Shown: positions 1-8,544 of the stretch, piece by piece
How the letters are laid out: the number at the start of each line of letters is the position of its first letter
How positions within the stretch are numbered: the first letter of the stretch is position 1
Source of the DNA: a virus
Lineage: Duplodnaviria; Heunggongvirae; Uroviricota; Caudoviricetes
Reading direction: 5' to 3' (one strand)
IMG/VR virus record: IMGVR_UViG_648276648_000007
Location: 1 to 8,544 of that record
Length of the DNA stretch: 8,544 nucleotides
Notes under the pieces: generated by a model
Told to the model about the DNA's origin: nothing
Databases searched by the model: none
What the model saw: the letters and a program-made list of their open reading frames with translations, nothing else
Program-made: the position numbers and the translations under genes

Positions 1-429
1 CATAACAAACCCATTAAATTCACAATTATTCATGGCGTATCCGCCAGCTGAGGAATAAGTAGTTATCACAACTCGTGAGGCTAATTCATCGGTACTGCCT
101 CCAGATCGGCGAAAGACTATAGGATACCACTTACCGCTTACTGCATTTGCAGGCGCTGAAAAAGTGTATTTTCGCATCCCTTTTTTATTGTCTATTTCGC
201 TTTTGCTGTAAACGTCCAGATCTTTAGGAGTCAACGTAATGTCAGCCGAACCATCGAACCTGACGCCATTAATGTTTATGGCTGTTTTTAATTTCGTCGC
301 GGTGTCGGCGTTCCCTGTCAGCGCCCCGGTGATCCCGCCGTTGAAAGTCTGGCGCGCACTCCATGTGTTAGCCGTGCTCAACAGGGGGATCTTTTCACCG
401 CTGGTACCGAGTTCTCTTAAACCAAGGTT
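1..429 (-). CDS. Phage tail-fibre C-terminal variable cassette (Sv'-type), partial; 143 codons from the crossover site to the window edge, no start codon of its own
   Basis: Minus-strand translation from 429 down to 1 has no stop and reads NLGLRELGTSGEKIPLLSTANTWSARQTFNGGITGALTGNADTATKLKTAININGVRFDGSADITLTPKDLDVYSKSEIDNKKG..., a pattern I recognise from P1 S / Mu S / P2 H-type tail fibres. It begins at the inversion site beside the invertase. Absent from the ORF track because it has no ATG and leaves the window. Confidence 0.8.
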
Positions 430-437
430 TAGGATTG
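412..437. other. Site-specific inversion crossover site (cix/gix-like): 12-bp imperfect inverted repeats around a 2-bp core
   Basis: TTCTCTTAAACC-AA-GGTTTAGGATTG. The inner 6 bp of each arm (TAAACC / GGTTTA) are a perfect inverted repeat, 8 of 12 arm positions match, and the centre is an AA dinucleotide, as in Gin/Cin/Hin/Pin sites. It lies at the junction of the tail-fibre cassette and the invertase gene. Confidence 0.65.
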
Positions 438-989
438 AAATGATGACGCAGGAAACTTTTTATAAAGCGTGGAAACAGCAACATCATAGATGATTGCAAC
501 CTGCTTACGGGGGATGCCATTCTCCAGCAATCGACGCATTTGCTGCCATGTTTCTTCTTGGTATTTAGGCCGACGGCCTCCTATTCGACCTTCTGCGCGA
601 GCTGCATCAAGTCCAGCGCGTGTACGTTCAACGATAAGCTCACGTTCCATTTCTGCCAGCGCCCCCATTACGTGAAAGAAAAAGCGCCCCATTGGTGTAC
701 TGGTGTCGATGGAGTCAGTGAGACTCCGGAAGTTAATTCCTCTGTCACGCAGCTCCTCCACCAGCACAACCAAGTGACGCATGCTGCGCCCAAGACGATC
801 TAACTTCCATACGACCAGGGTGTCACCTCTGGAAAGCATACGCAAAACCTTTCTTAGCCCAGGGCGTTCAGCCTTTTTGCCGCTCGCCTTATCCTCAAAA
901 ATTAGCTCACATCCTGCGCTTTCAAGGGCATTTCGTTGTAAAGCAGTGTTTTGTTCATTTGTTGATACGCGTACATAGCCTATTAGCAT
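429..989 (-). CDS. cin: Serine recombinase, DNA invertase of the Cin/Gin/Pin/Hin family (186 aa)
   Basis: The ORF translation begins MLIGYVRVSTNEQNTALQRNAL and contains VVWKLDRLGRSMRHL, GINFRSLTDSIDTSTPMGRFFFHVMGALAEMERELI and C-terminal IPRKQVAIIYDVAVSTLYKKF, near-identical in pattern to Cin/Gin/Pin/Hin. Catalytic Ser is S9 in YVRVST. The symbol cin is chosen from the P1-like neighbourhood; pin or gin orthology cannot be excluded without alignment. Confidence 0.95.
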   Translation of the reverse strand: MLIGYVRVSTNEQNTALQRNALESAGCELIFEDKASGKKAERPGLRKVLRMLSRGDTLVVWKLDRLGRSMRHLVVLVEELRDRGINFRSLTDSIDTSTPMGRFFFHVMGALAEMERELIVERTRAGLDAARAEGRIGGRRPKYQEETWQQMRRLLENGIPRKQVAIIYDVAVSTLYKKFPASSFQS

Positions 990-1116
990 ATTTTCTGCTC
1001 ACTATCGTTATTTATAGCAAGCTGCGGATTTTAATTAACAAAAACCAGTATGTGTGGAAATCACAAAGTACATACCGTTTCCCAATGATATTTAATTCAC
1101 TATTAAGGAAATAGTT
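990..1116. promoter_or_regulatory. Divergent intergenic promoter region between the invertase gene (leftward) and the lyd/dar-type operon (rightward)
   Basis: 127 bp AT-rich spacer between two divergently oriented start codons; AGGA sits 7 nt upstream of the ATG at 1117. Exact -10/-35 elements were not assigned. Confidence 0.4.
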
Positions 1117-1398
1117 ATGTGTGATTTCACAATAATGCTCCTCTCCATCCTTGGCGGGGTGCATTCGTTTCTGAATGGGGTTCGTGAAAAACGTTACGAA
1201 GCGTCATGCAGGCAATTGATGGCCGAGTGTATTGCTGCCGTACTTGCAGGCTTTATAGGCATGTATTTCGCGGAATATAAGGGTATGGATGAAAGTCTTC
1301 AGAATTGCGTGACTATTATTTGCAGCATCAATAACAGGCTCATTCTTGAAAAGTTACAAAGGATTATCGATTCGCACCTCAATAGAAATGCCTCTTAA
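1117..1398 (+). CDS. Small two-TM membrane protein, holin-like (LydC-like position), 93 aa
   Basis: Two hydrophobic segments (IMLLSILGGVHSFL and IAAVLAGFIGMYF) followed by a charged C-terminal tail; AGGA RBS 7 nt upstream; same architecture as the next ORF. Confidence 0.6.
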   Translation: MCDFTIMLLSILGGVHSFLNGVREKRYEASCRQLMAECIAAVLAGFIGMYFAEYKGMDESLQNCVTIICSINNRLILEKLQRIIDSHLNRNAS

Positions 1399-1465
1399 GC
1401 AACAAATGACCGGTTGAGAAGTTACTTTGCATACCATTACCTCCTGACAACGTAGGAGGGAACTT

Positions 1466-1795
1466 GTGCTTGACACACAGGAATTAGCTCCAGTTGCTAT
1501 TGCGCTCCTGCTTTCAGTAATTGGTGGGATAGGCACGTTCCTGATGGATGTCCGAGACGGTCGCCAGTCTGGCAATTTGTTAGGATTGGTTACGGAGATC
1601 TTTGTTGCAGTGACAGCTGGCGCGGTGGCGTACCTATTGGGGCAACACGAGGGCTGGGAGTTATCAATTACGTACTTAATGGTAACGATAGCCAGCAATA
1701 ACGGTCATGAGGTGATTTCAGGGATGAAACGAGTGAATATCGATAGCATTCTGAATGTTCTTACAAGTTTGGTGAAAAAGGGAGGCGGGAAATGA
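1466..1795 (+). CDS. lydA: Two-TM holin-like protein (LydA-type), 109 aa, GTG start
   Basis: Strong RBS AGGAGG at 1454-1459, 6 nt before GTG at 1466. Two TM segments (LAPVAIALLLSVIGGIGTFLMDV and IFVAVTAGAVAYLLG) separated by a short charged loop. The symbol rests on position next to cin and on size, as I recall the P1 order cin-lydC-lydA-lydB. Confidence 0.6.
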   Translation: MLDTQELAPVAIALLLSVIGGIGTFLMDVRDGRQSGNLLGLVTEIFVAVTAGAVAYLLGQHEGWELSITYLMVTIASNNGHEVISGMKRVNIDSILNVLTSLVKKGGGK

Positions 1796-2235
1796 TTGGC
1801 TGGGGTGTATGCGTTCTTGCGTTAGCCTTAGCCGATCGCTATTTGCTAAAACGCAAGGACATCACGCACTTAGAACTTGGTGATGTGGAAATTAAACCGG
1901 GTTTCATCCGGGTGCCGTTCAAATACCGGTCTAAATTCCCGTTTTTGCGCGGCGCAACGGTCAGATATTGGATCCGCGATGTTCAGAAGCCGACGACAGT
2001 GATTGAAGGCGAACAACGTTGTCTGACGTCGGCTGAACAGGGCGAAAACAGTGAATGGTTGTACATACCCACTGAATATATGGGTAAAGGAGAGCGACTG
2101 TGGCATTTCAACGTCATGGTTACGCATGGCGACTCGTTCATTAACCCGTTGTATCGGATTTTCCCTGTTACTCAGCAAATCCGCAGAAGTTACGTAATAA
2201 ATCTCGCACAGGATGTGTCAGATGACGAAAAATAA
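1792..2235 (+). CDS. lydB: 147-aa protein with N-terminal hydrophobic anchor or signal sequence, candidate antiholin (LydB-like)
   Basis: ATG at 1792 overlaps the stop of the previous gene (ATGA coupling); GGAGG RBS at 1781-1785; N-terminus MIGWGVCVLALALA is hydrophobic. Assignment is by synteny and size only. Confidence 0.5.
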   Translation: MIGWGVCVLALALADRYLLKRKDITHLELGDVEIKPGFIRVPFKYRSKFPFLRGATVRYWIRDVQKPTTVIEGEQRCLTSAEQGENSEWLYIPTEYMGKGERLWHFNVMVTHGDSFINPLYRIFPVTQQIRRSYVINLAQDVSDDEK

Positions 2236-2824
2236 GTATGCAACGGTCGATTTTGACCAGGTTAATGAAAAGGGGCTGAAATCCCTTATCGCGGCGATCA
2301 ATAAAACCGGGGTTACGGTAATTGAGGTTGACTCCAGCAACCGCGCAACAACGAAAGATGGCGTTAAAGTTAAAACCGCAAAGCTGGTTCTTAACGACGG
2401 ACAAATTCTTGCCATACAGGTAAACGATACTGGCGATATATCGTCTGTGAAGCTGAATGGAAAAGCTATTCCTAACGCTCAGTCGCCGGATATCAAGACG
2501 CTTGGTACCGTCATGGGGCAAGCGGCCAGCAAAAACTCCGCAAAATTCCAGAAATCACTGATCGCCAAAGCGAAACGTGTTGCCAATCCGGTAGACAAGA
2601 AACCGGCAGTAAAATCCAACTTTCAGCGCCTGCAAGAGGCAAAACAGCGGAATGCTCAGGTGGTTGCCGCTTATAAGTCCGCGCAGAATTCGGTGTCTTT
2701 CAATCAACAGCAGATCACTGATTTGCGGGCGAAGCTGGATACGGAGACGGGCCGACTCAATAACGAAAAGGCACGGAATGGCGAACTCAAACGTCGTCTT
2801 AAGCAACTGAAAGCAGGAAATTAA
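2213..2824 (+). CDS. hdf: Hdf-like protein (homolog of DarA fragment), about 200 aa
   Basis: Overlaps the end of the upstream gene. Carries the block ...LNDGQILAIQV...KNSAKFQK followed by a Lys/Gln-rich coiled-coil tail, which recurs in the next, larger gene. An alternative start at ATG 2222 has better spacing to AGGA at 2209-2212. Confidence 0.7.
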   Translation: MCQMTKNKYATVDFDQVNEKGLKSLIAAINKTGVTVIEVDSSNRATTKDGVKVKTAKLVLNDGQILAIQVNDTGDISSVKLNGKAIPNAQSPDIKTLGTVMGQAASKNSAKFQKSLIAKAKRVANPVDKKPAVKSNFQRLQEAKQRNAQVVAAYKSAQNSVSFNQQQITDLRAKLDTETGRLNNEKARNGELKRRLKQLKAGN

Positions 2825-2825
2825 C

Positions 2826-4745
2826 ATGGAACAGTTCAATATCAATAAAGGGGTGACGATCAAGCCTGGGCTTGACGTACTTCCCCCGCCAGTGACTGAT
2901 GATGAATATCGCGCATTAATGGCCGGAGAGGACCGCTATCTGATGACGGAATCCAACACCCTGGAGGAAATCGAGGCTACGTTCTTCTATGACACGCCGA
3001 TCCACTGGTGTGCTACGGATTTACTGGAGGCGATTAGTTCTACTCGTTTGCAGTTACACCGGACCATGCAGGCATTTGTCCGGGCATTGAACCAGAAGCT
3101 GAATGGTACCGGAATCTCTGCGGGGAGTGATAAAACGGGGGATGTGGCCCAGAGCGGCGCGCGAGCGATCGGCGGCGCTGAAATTGGCCGGGCACGTAAC
3201 GTTAACGGGCTGCCGGTCCTGCCAGCCATTATCCCGCTCAGTGATGGTCAGACTATCAGCATTCTGTTTCATAGCCCGACAGCGGAAAACCGGATCACCA
3301 ATAGCGATACGCTGGTTGCTTTCCAGTTCTTACTGAATAAAAAAGACGTTACTCACACCGTTGCTCCGATGAGTGGACGTGATATGACGCTGGCGCAGGT
3401 CACCATGAAACTTGCCAACCTTGCAGAGAAAAACTCGGCAAAATTCCAGCGTGCGCAGAAGAAGAAAAAAGCCCTGGTTGATGAAATAACCCAACTACAG
3501 GCTGACAGTGACCAGAAAGAGGATGCCATGAGCGACCTCGCGGATCAGGTGGCAGCGGTAGAAGGCCAGAAGGCAGATCTGGAGCAGAAAATTAACGCAG
3601 TTGCTTCGGAAGCGGATTCTCTTTATCAAGAAAATGAGCGTTTGCAGGCGGAGATTGATCAGCTCAATCGCACTGGTGGGCGCGATACCATTGCTCCAGC
3701 GGGGATGACTGGTGGGCACTCTCTCGCGCTGACGGATCGCCTTGCCAGTATCAAAAATCGTATGCATATGGACGGGGAAGCGACGCTCAGTAATGGTGCA
3801 TTAATGAAGCAATTCATTGGGGACGGCGAAGGGTATATCCAGTTAACCGATCCGGATGGCAGCGTGTACATGATCAAGGCTAAATCCATACAGGGTGTGG
3901 ACATGACAGATGCGATCGGCAAGCTGTTTAAAGCCTATAAAGCGGGTAATGTATCGGAATATCTGGTCCAACCAGAAGAACCTAAACCGGAAAACGTCGA
4001 ACCTGAACCAGTGGAGGATACCGGCAGCTCTTCGCCTGAACCAGAAGTCTCTGTAGGCGCATATCGATATGCCCTGCAAATGCGTCCGGCGGCCCCTGGC
4101 GCGATACCTGAAGGTAACAAAGCAATTCTGCCGCGCCCTGATAAAGGTGACCCGTATTATGAATACGCGCGCTACGGCATTGTTACTTACGATACCCCGC
4201 TTTCTGATCAGCAAATGAGTGAGTACGACCTGAAGTTATTGCCTCGCGAGGATTCTTTCGACTTCCTGGCGAAGACACTTACTAATGGTCCGTTTGGCAA
4301 ATATGCACAAAAAGCTCTGGAGCTGGCCACCAGCTCACCAGACGAGTTCCGCGTAATGCTGAAAACTCAGTTTCAAAAAACTTTCCCCAATATTGCGTTT
4401 CCGGGGGGCGCTGGCACCGAGAAAATGGTGCAGAGCATGATCAATGCATTGCAGGCCGAAGTCGGTGAGATTACTCAGCCAGAACCGGCCCCGGCACAGC
4501 CTGATGAAACGGTTAGCGAAGCAGATGCAGAGGCTAATAAAGCCATTGAATATCTCAATAGCGTGATGGATATGCAAAGCACTGACATGGCGGAGATCCG
4601 TAATGCCCGGGGTAATGCCCGGGAAGCGATTGCAGCCCTTCAGGCTGCCGGGCGTTTTGAGGAAAACGAAGAGCTGGTTAATGGCGCTGCTCGCCACCTG
4701 GCTGATCTGCTGGTAGCAATCCAGAAAGCGGGGGTAGTGGCATGA
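2826..4745 (+). CDS. darA: DarA-like capsid-associated anti-restriction protein, 639 aa
   Basis: Starts 1 nt after the hdf-like stop with AGGA 7 nt upstream. Multi-domain: N-terminal region, the Hdf-shared block around KNSAKFQR (nt 3429-3449), a long coiled coil (about nt 3450-3670) and two Pro/Glu-rich linkers. Size and position match what I recall for P1 DarA. Confidence 0.7.
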   Translation: MEQFNINKGVTIKPGLDVLPPPVTDDEYRALMAGEDRYLMTESNTLEEIEATFFYDTPIHWCATDLLEAISSTRLQLHRTMQAFVRALNQKLNGTGISAGSDKTGDVAQSGARAIGGAEIGRARNVNGLPVLPAIIPLSDGQTISILFHSPTAENRITNSDTLVAFQFLLNKKDVTHTVAPMSGRDMTLAQVTMKLANLAEKNSAKFQRAQKKKKALVDEITQLQADSDQKEDAMSDLADQVAAVEGQKADLEQKINAVASEADSLYQENERLQAEIDQLNRTGGRDTIAPAGMTGGHSLALTDRLASIKNRMHMDGEATLSNGALMKQFIGDGEGYIQLTDPDGSVYMIKAKSIQGVDMTDAIGKLFKAYKAGNVSEYLVQPEEPKPENVEPEPVEDTGSSSPEPEVSVGAYRYALQMRPAAPGAIPEGNKAILPRPDKGDPYYEYARYGIVTYDTPLSDQQMSEYDLKLLPREDSFDFLAKTLTNGPFGKYAQKALELATSSPDEFRVMLKTQFQKTFPNIAFPGGAGTEKMVQSMINALQAEVGEITQPEPAPAQPDETVSEADAEANKAIEYLNSVMDMQSTDMAEIRNARGNAREAIAALQAAGRFEENEELVNGAARHLADLLVAIQKAGVVA

Positions 4746-5107
4746 CACTATCAGCTATTGAGTTAATGGATCTCAGCGATAAGTTGGATGCTCTGATGTC
4801 CAAAGCGGCGACCGCGAGTGGCATGGAGTTGCTGGATATCAGCGATGAAATTGACCAGATCATGCAACAGATGGGGTACGGCGCATCCGGCAGCGGTAGT
4901 GGCGAGGAAAAACAACCTTCGGTGCATGATGGTGTGCCAAAACTGGTTGCTGATTTCCTGGCTGATAAATTCGTCGATCAGAGCACCGATGCATTTATCG
5001 GTACGTTGCAGGACTTAAGTCAATATGTTGGCACATACATCGACCTGGACCAGGTTAAACAGCACACGGCGGCATGGATAGCCGCCAACATTAAAGAGGC
5101 GGTATAA
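4742..5107 (+). CDS. ddrA: Small acidic protein, DdrA-like, 121 aa
   Basis: ATGA start/stop overlap with the darA-like gene; Asp/Glu-rich with a GASGSGSGEE linker; size and position match my recollection of P1 ddrA. Confidence 0.6.
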   Translation: MTLSAIELMDLSDKLDALMSKAATASGMELLDISDEIDQIMQQMGYGASGSGSGEEKQPSVHDGVPKLVADFLADKFVDQSTDAFIGTLQDLSQYVGTYIDLDQVKQHTAAWIAANIKEAV

Positions 5108-5119
5108 GGCGTAACAGGG

Positions 5120-6808
5120 ATGAGTTTAAACGATCAGATAGTTATGGCCACCAGCAGCGGATACAACGGTGTTGCGCCATATACCAGCTTGCTATTACAT
5201 CGGGCATCCGGCATCAAAGACATTATTCATCTGATCAGGCTGCTTTCCCGAACAGATCCCCAGGATGAACAGCTTGTACAAGTGCTTGCGCATTTTGTTC
5301 GAATGCCTGTTGCCGACGTGAATAAATGGTGCCGATTATTCGGTATCAGCAATTCGTTACTTCGCGGCTTGTTAAATCACGCATCCTCCCTTGGGCGCGA
5401 TGGCTTTGACGAGATAGCGCAGGCGATAAAAAACGGAGATATGCCACCAGCTATTGACTGGTTTTCCATTCGCCCAACCAGGGTGAAAGCATTCCTTAGC
5501 GCGGCGCATTCGGCATCACCATTGGCAGAAATGGTTCAGAGGTTGTCGCTCATATTCACAGACCATACCGCGTTGGGTGATCTGACTCTGGACGAGATGA
5601 AAGAAGCCTCCATTCAGTGGGCCGATCAACAAAATGAGGTTAACTCAGACTTCTTGCCAGCATTCAGGAAGGCCGTTATTAAAGCGGATGATGCCCGTGG
5701 AATTCTGAAGGCATTTAAGGCATTGCAAAGTCGGGTTAATAAACATGTCGGTGATATCGATGGGGTAACGGCGGAAGGCAGGGATATCCTTAAAGAGCAC
5801 GGCATAACGCCAGAGTTTATTGATGAGATCAGGACTGATATGCAGCGTGAGGTCGTATCGTCCCTGCAAATTGTAGCCAGAGCGTTGGCGGATGCTAATC
5901 CGAAGAGTGCGGCCATTGTTAACCGGGTTATTGGTGATATTGAAGCATCGGAGGGCATGGGGGCGCTGAAACTCTTCCTTTCGCGAGCGTTTAATCCTAA
6001 CGGCAATATTCTCCCTGGCATTATTGGTGAGGCTAAAAGGTATGTCAGTGAAGAAGAACTTGAGCAGCTTGACCAACTACTTAAGCGATTCTCATATAAC
6101 CCGCAGACACGCTGGCAAATGAATCAGCGAAGAATGGGTTCGGTCCACGAGAAAGTGTTATCTGCCATGAACAGTGCGATCGCAAACTCATCCGTATCTG
6201 AAGAAAAAGCTCTTGAGTGGGCCGACTCTTTTATCACGGAAGAAGTGGAAGAAGCCCGCGCTGGACAGAATGGTGGGATAGACCTGCGCAAGGAACTTGC
6301 TGATATTTATCGCCTGACCGGCGGTAAAATTTCGACCTTATCAAAGGTGGTTCACCACCAGGGAAGGGCATATGCAAATCTTAATGGTGTTGTTGCTGTC
6401 AATTTGAACGATGAAAATGCAAGTGCACTGTGGCACGAGCTGGGTCATCATCTTGAGTACAGTAACCCTGGTTTGTTAGAGAAAGCCCGGTCATTCCTGA
6501 AGGCCAATGTTGAAGGGGATAAGCCATCTTTCGTTAATATCGGTGGGCGTGGCAAGCCTGAATGGTGCTTCAGATCTCGATTGAGTAATATTTATATGGC
6601 GAAGGTATACCCGCCAGCCTCAGTAAGTAACACCGGGAAAATTCGGCAGAAATCACCGACTATTTCCAAAACGTCAGCAACGGAAGTATTCTCTATGGCT
6701 CTTCAGTTGTATCATGACAAAGAGGCCGCTGCCGCATCACTGATGAATGGTGACGGATTGCTGGAACTGTTATTAGGTGTGGCAAAGGAGCTAAATAATG
6801 CAGATTAA
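5120..6808 (+). CDS. Uncharacterised 562-aa protein with a single HExxH zincin-type motif (HELGH, residues 439-443); occupies the ddrB position
   Basis: Long clean ORF in the operon's codon context; WHELGHHLEY is encoded at nt 6431-6460; the rest is largely helical and charged. I cannot confirm similarity to P1 DdrB from memory, and I recall DdrB as considerably larger. Confidence 0.85.
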   Translation: MSLNDQIVMATSSGYNGVAPYTSLLLHRASGIKDIIHLIRLLSRTDPQDEQLVQVLAHFVRMPVADVNKWCRLFGISNSLLRGLLNHASSLGRDGFDEIAQAIKNGDMPPAIDWFSIRPTRVKAFLSAAHSASPLAEMVQRLSLIFTDHTALGDLTLDEMKEASIQWADQQNEVNSDFLPAFRKAVIKADDARGILKAFKALQSRVNKHVGDIDGVTAEGRDILKEHGITPEFIDEIRTDMQREVVSSLQIVARALADANPKSAAIVNRVIGDIEASEGMGALKLFLSRAFNPNGNILPGIIGEAKRYVSEEELEQLDQLLKRFSYNPQTRWQMNQRRMGSVHEKVLSAMNSAIANSSVSEEKALEWADSFITEEVEEARAGQNGGIDLRKELADIYRLTGGKISTLSKVVHHQGRAYANLNGVVAVNLNDENASALWHELGHHLEYSNPGLLEKARSFLKANVEGDKPSFVNIGGRGKPEWCFRSRLSNIYMAKVYPPASVSNTGKIRQKSPTISKTSATEVFSMALQLYHDKEAAAASLMNGDGLLELLLGVAKELNNAD

Positions 6809-7109
6809 AATCGCAGCGCCATTAGGCGGAGATGCCATTATCGAATTTGATGATAATGAAGAAGTTTCCGGGCGTTTAAGCATTATCTCCGGTGACATTA
6901 CCGAGGACATGATCGCTGAAGCCATAGCTGGGGCAAATCCCAATAGCTATATGGGATTCGTTAACACCCTTGATGCTCCCGCAAGTGATGTTCTCCGAAC
7001 GCTGCATCTTTACGCTGGCTGGTTTGTTGATTGGCCAGCAGTAGATGGTGGCGATGATGACGACGACGATGATGATTTTGGTGATCATGTAGACCAGATC
7101 GTATATTAA
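6798..7109 (+). CDS. Small, very acidic protein, 103 aa, with a C-terminal run of eight Asp
   Basis: AGGAG RBS at 6786-6790, 7 nt before the ATG; overlaps the end of the 562-aa gene by 11 nt; eight consecutive Asp codons at 7053-7076; roughly 25 acidic against 3 Lys/Arg residues. Confidence 0.8.
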   Translation: MQIKIAAPLGGDAIIEFDDNEEVSGRLSIISGDITEDMIAEAIAGANPNSYMGFVNTLDAPASDVLRTLHLYAGWFVDWPAVDGGDDDDDDDDFGDHVDQIVY

Positions 7110-7175
7110 CTCCCTGATTGTGCAAAAATAATCTGTTCTGATATGTTAATTGTGTACTTAAAGTAAACGCGTAGT

Positions 7176-7203
7176 GGCTTGCTTTAGGTTATGGAAGCAA
7201 GCC
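7176..7203 (+). terminator. Perfect 9-bp stem / 10-nt loop hairpin 67 nt downstream of the operon's last stop codon; possible terminator
   Basis: GGCTTGCTT-taggttatgg-AAGCAAGCC. It is not followed by a clean T-run, so intrinsic terminator function is uncertain. Confidence 0.3.
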
Positions 7204-7722
7204 GTTACCTAATATGTTAGATCAAAAAAAATTAATTTTTGCGTTTCGCTCACCACATATTGAACACTTTAGTCGATCTTTTAATTCTTCCAGAGTCAAT
7301 CCTGAAGCTACATATTGTTTAATATCTCTTCTTTATTGCATATTCAGAGGGTAAAGATATACACATACTAAAATGAATTAGCTTAGCTCGTTATTAATCA
7401 GGATTCGATGAGACCGCTCCATTTTAGGGAATAACATTTATAACTAAAACACATCGTCTTTAACTCTCACAATATAGATTCAATTTAATACCCAATCGGC
7501 AGTAATTAATTTGATTCTAATTTTTAAGTAGATTTCAAGTCTACATCCATTAAAGCCCTGTTAATTAACAGGCTATCTATTTTTGACAGTTATTATTTTT
7601 GTGATAATTTAATTGTTTGTCTTTTGTGCTTATTTTTGATTGTTTTTTGATCTATTTTGTCAATTTTTATTCTGTGAATTGAGTTTTTTCTAATAGTCCA
7701 TTGGGTTTTCAAGGCTATTATT

Positions 7723-7738
7723 TGTGATTTTGATCACA
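7723..7738. promoter_or_regulatory. Consensus CRP (cAMP receptor protein) binding site
   Basis: TGTGA-TTTTGA-TCACA matches the TGTGA-N6-TCACA consensus exactly, with arms extendable to 7 bp (TTTGTGA / TCACAAA, 7721-7740). It lies about 120 bp upstream of the porin ATG, near a candidate -35 TTGAAA (7767-7772) and -10 ATAAAC (7789-7794). Confidence 0.5.
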
Positions 7739-7850
7739 AAAATACCTTGATTTTTATTTGCAAAACTTGAAACACGAATCCAAAAAAGATAAACATTTGT
7801 CCGCAGTGACTTCTTTTCTACTGAAAAGTTCAATCTAAAGGGCAAAAAAA

Positions 7851-8192
7851 ATGAAAAAAATCACAGTGGCACTCTCTGCGGTTGCAGCATCTGTCCTGAT
7901 GGCAATGTCTGCGCAAGCAGCTGAAATCTACAACAAAGACGGTAATAAACTGGATCTGTACGGCAAAGTTAACGCAGAACATTACTTCTCTTCTTCAGCT
8001 AGTGATGACGGAGATAAGACTTATGCTCGTCTGGGATTCAAAGGTGAAACTCAGATTAATGACCAGTTAACCGGTTTTGGTCAGTGGGAGTACGAATTTA
8101 AAGGTAACCGTACTGAATCTGAGGGCTCTGATAAAGATAAAACTCGTCTTGCATTTGCTGGCCTCCGTTTTGCTGATTATGGTTCAATCGAC
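7851..8192 (+). pseudogene. nmpC: General porin of the NmpC/OmpD/Lc (OmpC/OmpF superfamily) type; 5' fragment of 114 codons, interrupted by IS26
   Basis: Signal peptide [23 protein letters not shown], then the classic mature porin N-terminus [17 protein letters not shown]...[26 protein letters not shown]...[17 protein letters not shown]. The frame then runs 8 codons into IS26 (GTVANSRW) and stops. The symbol is tentative: the signal peptide most resembles NmpC/Lc as I remember them. Confidence 0.85.
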
Positions 8193-8206
8193 GGCACTGT
8201 TGCAAA
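8193..8206. repeat. IS26 14-bp terminal inverted repeat (IRL)
   Basis: GGCACTGTTGCAAA at the exact point where the porin reading frame is broken. Confidence 0.9.
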
Positions 8207-8255
8207 TAGTCGGTGGTGATAAACTTATCATCCCCTTTTGCTGATGGAGCTGCAC

Positions 8256-8544
8256 ATGAACCCATTCAAAGGCCGGCATTTTCAGCGTGACATCATTCTG
8301 TGGGCCGTACGCTGGTACTGCAAATACGGCATCAGTTACCGTGAGCTGCAGGAGATGCTGGCTGAACGCGGAGTGAATGTCGATCACTCCACGATTTACC
8401 GCTGGGTTCAGCGTTATGCGCCTGAAATGGAAAAACGGCTGCGCTGGTACTGGCGTAACCCTTCCGATCTTTGCCCGTGGCACATGGATGAAACCTACGT
8501 GAAGGTCAATGGCCGCTGGGCGTATCTGTACCGGCCGTCGACAG
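8256..8544 (+). CDS. tnpA: IS26 transposase Tnp26 (DDE, IS6 family), N-terminal 96 codons, truncated by the window edge
   Basis: Translation MNPFKGRHFQRDIILWAVRWYCKYGISYRELQEMLAERGVNVDHSTIYRWVQRYAPEMEKRLRWYWRNPSDLCPWHMDETYVKVNGRWAYLYR matches Tnp26. The last codons read PST rather than the AVDS I recall (see findings). Confidence 0.9.
   Translation, partial: MNPFKGRHFQRDIILWAVRWYCKYGISYRELQEMLAERGVNVDHSTIYRWVQRYAPEMEKRLRWYWRNPSDLCPWHMDETYVKVNGRWAYLYRPST

Follow-up and report, generated by a model that had tools for sequence, protein, structure and literature searches.

The window analysed in this study, a stretch of 8,544 nucleotides taken as a whole, corresponds to one entire contig of the draft genome of Escherichia coli M718 (L004:2151-10694) with N runs on both sides, and carries a segment of P1/P7 phage-plasmid backbone followed by the porin gene nmpC, which runs directly into the left part of an IS26 copy. 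The first 390 bases of the window recur without change at the end of the contig before it in the scaffold (L004:976-1365), and thus the left N gap represents an unmerged contig overlap, situated beside the repeat that borders the invertible C segment on the cin side. The features of the window are listed below.

429 to 7109 (no strand given): P1/P7 backbone, recognised by gene matches and showing the porin gene to be part of a phage-plasmid; it consists of the following eight entries
429 to 989, minus strand: cin recombinase
1117 to 1398 and 1466 to 1795: two holins
1792 to 2235: LydB
2213 to 2824: DarA_N protein
2826 to 4745: DarA
4742 to 5107: ddrA-like gene
5120 to 6808: ddrB, 562-aa in-frame deletion allele
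6798 to 7109: hxr/odaA
7110 to 7850, plus strand: AT-rich intergenic region upstream of nmpC, intact and 100% identical to that of plasmids with the intact gene
7851 to 8219, plus strand: chimeric stub ORF of 122 aa (nmpC codons 1-114, then 8 IS26-derived codons and TGA)
7851 to 7919, plus strand: signal peptide of 23 codons, followed by AEIYNK (69-nt sig_peptide of P7 nmpC; OmpC, OmpK36 and OmpF chains align from residue 24)
7920 to 8192, plus strand: first 91 mature residues of a P7-type NmpC porin (Pfam Porin_1 positions 1-85 of 337; comparison with the intact 370-aa protein)
8185 to 8192 (no strand given): CAATCGAC, the 8 bp next to the left end of IS26, equal to positions 34886-34893 of the reference plasmid
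8193 to 8544, plus strand: left 352 bp of IS26, with the transposase gene tnp26 from 8256, within which the contig ends

Among about 15 billion proteins, the exact 122-aa sequence has only three records, all derived from M718: scaffold GL884141.1 (94,906 bp; GCA_000176575.2), OU349840.1, and a Logan contig of SRR024329. Over the stretch fetched, OU349840.1 is the same sequence as GL884141.1, N-gap lengths aside. The stub is deposited in GenBank as EGI18599.1 under the title "outer membrane porin protein NmpC [Escherichia coli M718]".

Of the Punavirus hallmark modules, the window contains cin, lydA/B, the darA operon and hxr, and either the scaffold or relatives supply further ones (ant, kilA, repL, ssb, lyz and pro). 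Many E. coli plasmids of 93-100 kb share this DNA, which in them continues into an intact 370-aa porin gene and then into ssb, lyz and pro, and these intact-porin plasmids are 100% identical to the window over positions 7500-8192. Phage P7 (AF503408) carries nmpC at the same hxr-ssb locus with the gene order conserved and 95.3% identity of the locus DNA; the protein of the intact relative is identical to P7 NmpC at 356 of 371 aligned positions, and the stub differs from it at 4 of 114 residues. Phage P1 carries IS1 and isaB at this locus instead of the porin gene. Judged from these gene matches, the element is a P1/P7-like plasmid prophage of E. coli M718 and its porin gene is the orthologue of P7 nmpC. 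The ddrB allele in the window is 433 codons shorter than the 995-aa form and has lost the PF18763 ddrB-ParB match; it recurs in an unrelated ENA contig (L011) and thus represents a circulating variant, not an assembly error.

Outside the P1-like plasmids, the nearest relatives of this porin bear the names Lc, NmpC (of the DLP12 prophage) or OmpD and are about 77-78% identical in the C-terminal 256 residues. The solved structures nearest to the intact relative are Omp36, OmpC and OmpK36, followed by PhoE and OmpF, all aligned from residue 24 on (up to residue 370 for the OmpC, OmpK36 and OmpF chains). By these relationships, the gene is classified as an accessory general porin gene borne on a phage-plasmid and not as that of a host major porin. 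The sequence-only reading had regarded the insertion as the inactivation of an outer-membrane porin of a kind that commonly serves as phage receptor and antibiotic entry route; since the gene is the accessory nmpC of a P1/P7-type phage-plasmid, the claim that such a receptor or route is lost is unsupported.

The stub is identical to the intact 370-aa plasmid porin over residues 1-114, and Pfam Porin_1 matches its residues 29-114 with E = 7e-38 and a score of 131.3 bits (cut-off 23.7), over positions 1-85 of the 337 in the profile. The mature chains of the solved OmpC and OmpF structures align from residue 24 of the porin, which fits a signal peptide of 23 residues, and 69 nt are annotated as such in the P7 nmpC record, in agreement with the earlier claim that the stub keeps its signal peptide. 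The same reading was right that the product holds no barrel: only 91 of approximately 347 mature residues are left, as against the approximately 340 mature residues of a complete barrel in a trimeric pore. The stub stops just short of the conserved YGRNYG...PEFGG stretch of the intact porin, which we take to be the start of the constriction loop L3 as in OmpF and OmpC. Ninety-one residues plus the 8-residue IS tail cannot build a 16-strand barrel, leaving the plasmid-borne porin null, and the stub is presumably exported and then degraded.

A scan of the plus strand for the sigma-70 consensus over the approximately 740 bp upstream of nmpC found none. On the minus strand, a hybrid promoter-like match (8205 to 8176) combines TTGCAA of the IS26 terminal repeat with CATAAT of the porin DNA over an 18-nt spacer, facing outward from IS26 and antisense to the stub; the scan gave 2 matches in total against 4.5 expected by chance, and the hybrid match is no evidence of function.

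At the junction, the reading frame that starts with ATG at 7851 leaves the porin gene at the last base of codon 114 (GAC; position 8192), enters the 14-bp terminal inverted repeat of IS26, GGCACTGTTGCAAA, at 8193-8206, and is translated as G-T-V-A-N-S-R-W up to the TGA stop at 8217-8219. The sequence-only description of this frame, entering IS26 after codon 114 and ending 8 codons on to give 122 aa, proved correct in every coordinate. The alignment of uninterrupted relatives to the window ends exactly at 8192. In addition, an independent k-mer assembly of SRR024329 (the Logan contig) is identical to the window over 4815-8221, reaches 29 bases into IS26, and shows no branch at 8192, ending only inside the IS26 repeat. 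Since two different assemblers gave the same sequence, the nmpC-IS26 junction is not the chimera of one assembler, and the lack of a branch argues against a co-existing intact nmpC allele. The interrupted gene is nmpC, the interrupting element is IS26, and the two meet at 8192/8193.

The portion of IS26 in the window (8193-8544) agrees with the canonical 820-bp element at 352 of 353 positions, one G being gone from the GGG run at 8533-8534, probably as a 454 homopolymer error. In both long records, the contig stops at the last base of the window and is followed by an N run (375 N in L004 versus 100 N in L005) and then by a second contig that starts inside IS26, so that the middle of the element, approximately 140 bp, falls in the N gap. 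The right 331 bp of IS26 (L004:11071-11401) are identical to the canonical element save for one missing C and a GG to AA change, and the right-end repeat has its last base at 11401; the second contig reads ...TTTGCAACAGTGCC at the IS26 end and then GTTAATGCCAATCC.... The missing C, a 1-nt loss in a CCC run, resembles a 454 error. The GG to AA change at IS26 positions 614-615 gives Tnp26 G184N, the IS26-v1 variant, for which the passage of PMC9019673 that cites Pong et al. 2019 gives a raised activity and cointegration frequency.

For a simple insertion, the sequence-only reading had expected CAATCGAC to be duplicated at the far end of IS26. The 8 bp beyond the right end in the M718 scaffold are GTTAATGC, and this check was negative: with CAATCGAC on the left and GTTAATGC on the right, no matching 8-bp direct duplication is present across the scaffold N gap, and the doubt voiced there about a simple insertion was justified. 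The copies of IS26 that result from replicative or recombinational rearrangement are usually without target duplication (PMC4471558), and thus its loss is no argument against the identity of the element. Direct comparison with an uninterrupted relative showed that GTTAATGC corresponds to icd codons 2-4, the IS26 end lying directly 3' of the icd ATG, and beyond it the scaffold continues with ant, kilA and repL. On the complete plasmid NZ_CP041922.1, the left flank matches 25639 to 34893 in the forward direction, and the right flank matches 8557 to 5446 and 3600 to 1 in the reverse direction. The order of genes on this reference, repL-kilA-ant-icd and then tail genes-C segment-cin-lyd-dar-hxr-nmpC-ssb, is the canonical order of P1/P7, as in the RD table of PMC6906374. 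At the scaffold level, with the join across the N gap, the two flanks of IS26 therefore lie far apart on one replicon, and one of the two is inverted relative to this order. A simple deletion is ruled out by the inverted far flank, and a cointegrate would bring in another replicon, the far flank being of the same one; neither of the two alternatives named in the earlier reading, deletion or cointegrate junction, is thus the best fit.

The reversal of the right flank on the same replicon fits one end of an inversion of reference positions 8558-34893. We consider it likely, with a probability of roughly 0.7, that the IS26 copy that cuts nmpC of this P1/P7-like plasmid prophage is one of two inverse copies bounding an inversion of approximately 26 kb. 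The inverted segment would extend from icd codon 2 through the tail genes, the C segment, cin and the lyd-dar genes to nmpC codon 114. Such a product could arise by a single intramolecular replicative transposition of IS26 in the inverting orientation, or by two separate IS26 insertions followed by recombination between the copies; the two routes give the same product and are indistinguishable from the sequence. By the first of these routes IS26 is known to produce inversions in one step, leaving two inverted copies with exchanged 8-bp flanks (PMC4471558), and the P1-like plasmid pTZ20_1P is a published case of inversions bounded by IS26 (PMC6906374). The second IS26 copy would join the c4 side to CAATCGAC and the 3' part of nmpC, with ...ACTATGGTTAATGC abutting IS26 and IS26 abutting CAATCGACTACGG... 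as the expected reciprocal junctions; more fully, ...CGTAACTATGGTTAATGC should lie beside one IS26 end, and the other end should be followed by CAATCGACTACGGTCGTAAC... (nmpC codon 115 onward) and ssb. Counted out from the mapped stretch, the 94,906-bp scaffold would have its two ends at roughly 8558 and 34894 on the reference, the expected place of the second IS26 copy, left unbridged. One of the two IS26 copies is seen, with two of the four junctions, and the reverse-complement pair of octamers is half observed. The reading as an inversion takes the scaffold link across the IS26 gap to be right, the join being that of the scaffolder over an N run and not continuous sequence.

For the reciprocal junction, ORFs composed of the IS26 end, CAATCGAC and the 3' part of nmpC were absent from the collection of 15 billion proteins. 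None of 13 exact-sequence lookups of predicted remnant ORFs returned a record from M718, the two recorded remnants with an internal start codon (240 and 224 aa) belonging to other strains, and a homology search with the predicted read-through ORF gave full-length clusters only. An exact lookup is defeated by a single error, and the M718 assembly carries 2 homopolymer errors in 675 bases of IS26; the missing remnant ORF is thus weak evidence, and hints only faintly at a simple-insertion isomer or a loss of the nmpC 3' part. The nmpC-IS26 junction was not found in PLSDB or in any of the complete RefSeq E. coli genomes, and neither the right-flank junction nor a synthetic reciprocal junction was found in the complete E. 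coli genomes, the high coverage counts in the latter search being due to the IS26 part of the query only. The sole apparent full-coverage match, pKTa005_3, and likewise pG5 unnamed1, were rejected as they carry intact, more divergent copies of the porin gene with other IS6-family elements upstream. More divergent copies of the porin gene (approximately 92-94% nucleotide identity; L002:9001-11930 and L003:8947-10884) lie directly 3' of a different IS6-family transposase gene, on a 64-kb plasmid (with no P1-like genes in the stretch fetched) and on a 148-kb plasmid, suggesting that the porin gene also travels with IS6-family elements.

The same observations may be accounted for in other ways. 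Two independent simple insertions of IS26, one in nmpC and one at the start of icd, each with its own duplication, would give the observed junctions if the scaffold were mis-joined or showed a minor isomer; the nmpC copy would then have CAATCGAC on both sides, and either the wrong contig ends were paired by the scaffolder or both isomers coexist in the culture through recombination of the inverted copies. The join does span an N gap inside an 820-bp repeat, and the product of recombination between two such copies would be identical in sequence to that of a one-step inversion, the isomers being able to interconvert by the mechanism in PMC4471558; we nevertheless hold this to be rather unlikely, because the gap of 375 N, if it is a paired-read estimate, would give the join read support, and the predicted ORFs of IS26, CAATCGAC and nmpC 3' were not found by lookup. 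It is very unlikely that the 3' part of nmpC has been lost, by an inversion and a subsequent deletion next to it, mediated by IS26, or by another rearrangement. No remnant ORF of M718 was found, yet the stub is present in three M718-derived records, and IS26 does make adjacent deletions (PMC4471558); against this, a plain deletion cannot invert the right flank, the scaffold of 94.9 kb is close to the complete relatives of 93-100 kb and leaves little room for a large loss, and a single sequencing error is enough to defeat the exact lookup.

That the join is an assembly chimera, or a cointegrate junction of two different replicons, we regard as extremely improbable, even though the last bases of the window belong to a multi-copy repeat, IS26 is able to form cointegrates, and the right-hand IS26 contig carries G184N, reported to raise cointegration frequency: two different assemblers gave the same junction sequence, and both flanks come from the same P1/P7 backbone.

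The inversion, which remains our preferred reading, would have a second consequence at its other end. In the P1 immI region, c4 and the operon promoter sit upstream of icd-ant. The right end of IS26 in M718 lies directly after the icd ATG (L004:11394-11620) and parts the icd-ant1/2 operon from its start codon, ribosome site, c4 and promoter, and the antirepressor should thereby be silenced. The icd breakpoint could block prophage induction through immI, and it may matter more to the element than the nmpC breakpoint. A separate plasmid, pYZ_2_2_2 (L022, NZ_JBVNBM010000003.1), carries two inverted IS26 copies, each beside one half of icd, and represents an independent IS26 event in the immI operon of a further P1-like plasmid.

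Interruption of prophage porin genes by insertion sequences is known in E. coli K-12, in which nmpC of DLP12 is silenced by IS5 near the 3' end of the gene, and Lc is the porin of the lambdoid phage PA-2. Both are general porins of prophages of the same clade as the M718 nmpC, and the K-12 copy is also knocked out by an insertion sequence; in contrast, these two belong to lambdoid chromosomal prophages and M718 nmpC to a P1/P7 plasmid prophage. In carbapenem-resistant Enterobacterales, insertion sequences disrupt the chromosomal ompC, ompF and ompK36, major porin genes, with measured effects on MIC. In M718, an insertion sequence likewise truncates a gene of the Porin_1 family, but the gene is an accessory copy on a plasmid prophage. 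The closest published case is the P1-like plasmid pSvP1, for which Venturini et al. 2019 described "P7 nmpC interrupted by IS10" (PMC6906374); there too an insertion sequence has inactivated this gene, at the same locus of a phage-plasmid of the same kind. In pSvP1, however, IS10 lies at another position and is flanked by a 9-bp direct repeat, indicating a simple insertion, whereas in M718 the element is IS26 with no matching 8-bp repeat and with the far flank inverted. In this respect M718 resembles the inversions described by He et al. 2015 (PMC4471558) and those of pTZ20_1P (PMC6906374), in which IS26 lacks a direct duplication and joins distant flanks of one replicon, one of them inverted. 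The nmpC locus is the variation hot-spot RD-2 among P1-like plasmids, occupied by isaA-IS1-isaB in P1 (PMC6906374). A literature search on the porin in phage-plasmid papers gave nothing relevant beyond Venturini et al. 2019.

Other, independent lesions of this P7-type porin gene were noted in P1-like contigs, in a sample biased by being collected via truncated ORFs: the nonsense changes W79* (L010) and Y45* (L011), a 527-bp deletion that removes the promoter and 5' end in four contigs (L012, L013, L016 and L017), a 784-bp deletion (L018), a mini-element of approximately 170 bp of the IS903 type with a 9-bp duplication (L009:9812-9981), an IS1 end at nt 146 of the gene (L015:1-64), and an unidentified junction at nt 98 (L014:1-22). 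Strong selection for porin loss is not indicated, as 112 of the 114 PLSDB plasmids carrying nmpC have it as one continuous stretch. The idea that a single inversion both kills the porin and parts icd-ant, locking the element into plasmid life, and that the many nmpC lesions reflect selection to shed the porin, for instance under antibiotic or phage pressure, we consider quite doubtful.

Both the IS-interrupted P7 nmpC and the IS26 inversions in P1-like plasmids have already been published, and the M718 locus brings neither a new kind of element nor a new mechanism; its significance beyond annotation is little. For annotation, EGI18599.1, titled as "NmpC", is the product of an IS26-truncated pseudogene and is not to be counted as a porin. 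A porin match on a contig need not be the major porin of the host; the M718 stub is phage-plasmid cargo, and it is therefore unsafe to infer from it a reduced permeability or a resistance to phage. The locus stands as one more case of IS26 reshaping P1/P7-like phage-plasmids, and its breakpoints at nmpC codon 114 and at icd codon 2 may serve to test whether such an inversion disables prophage induction.
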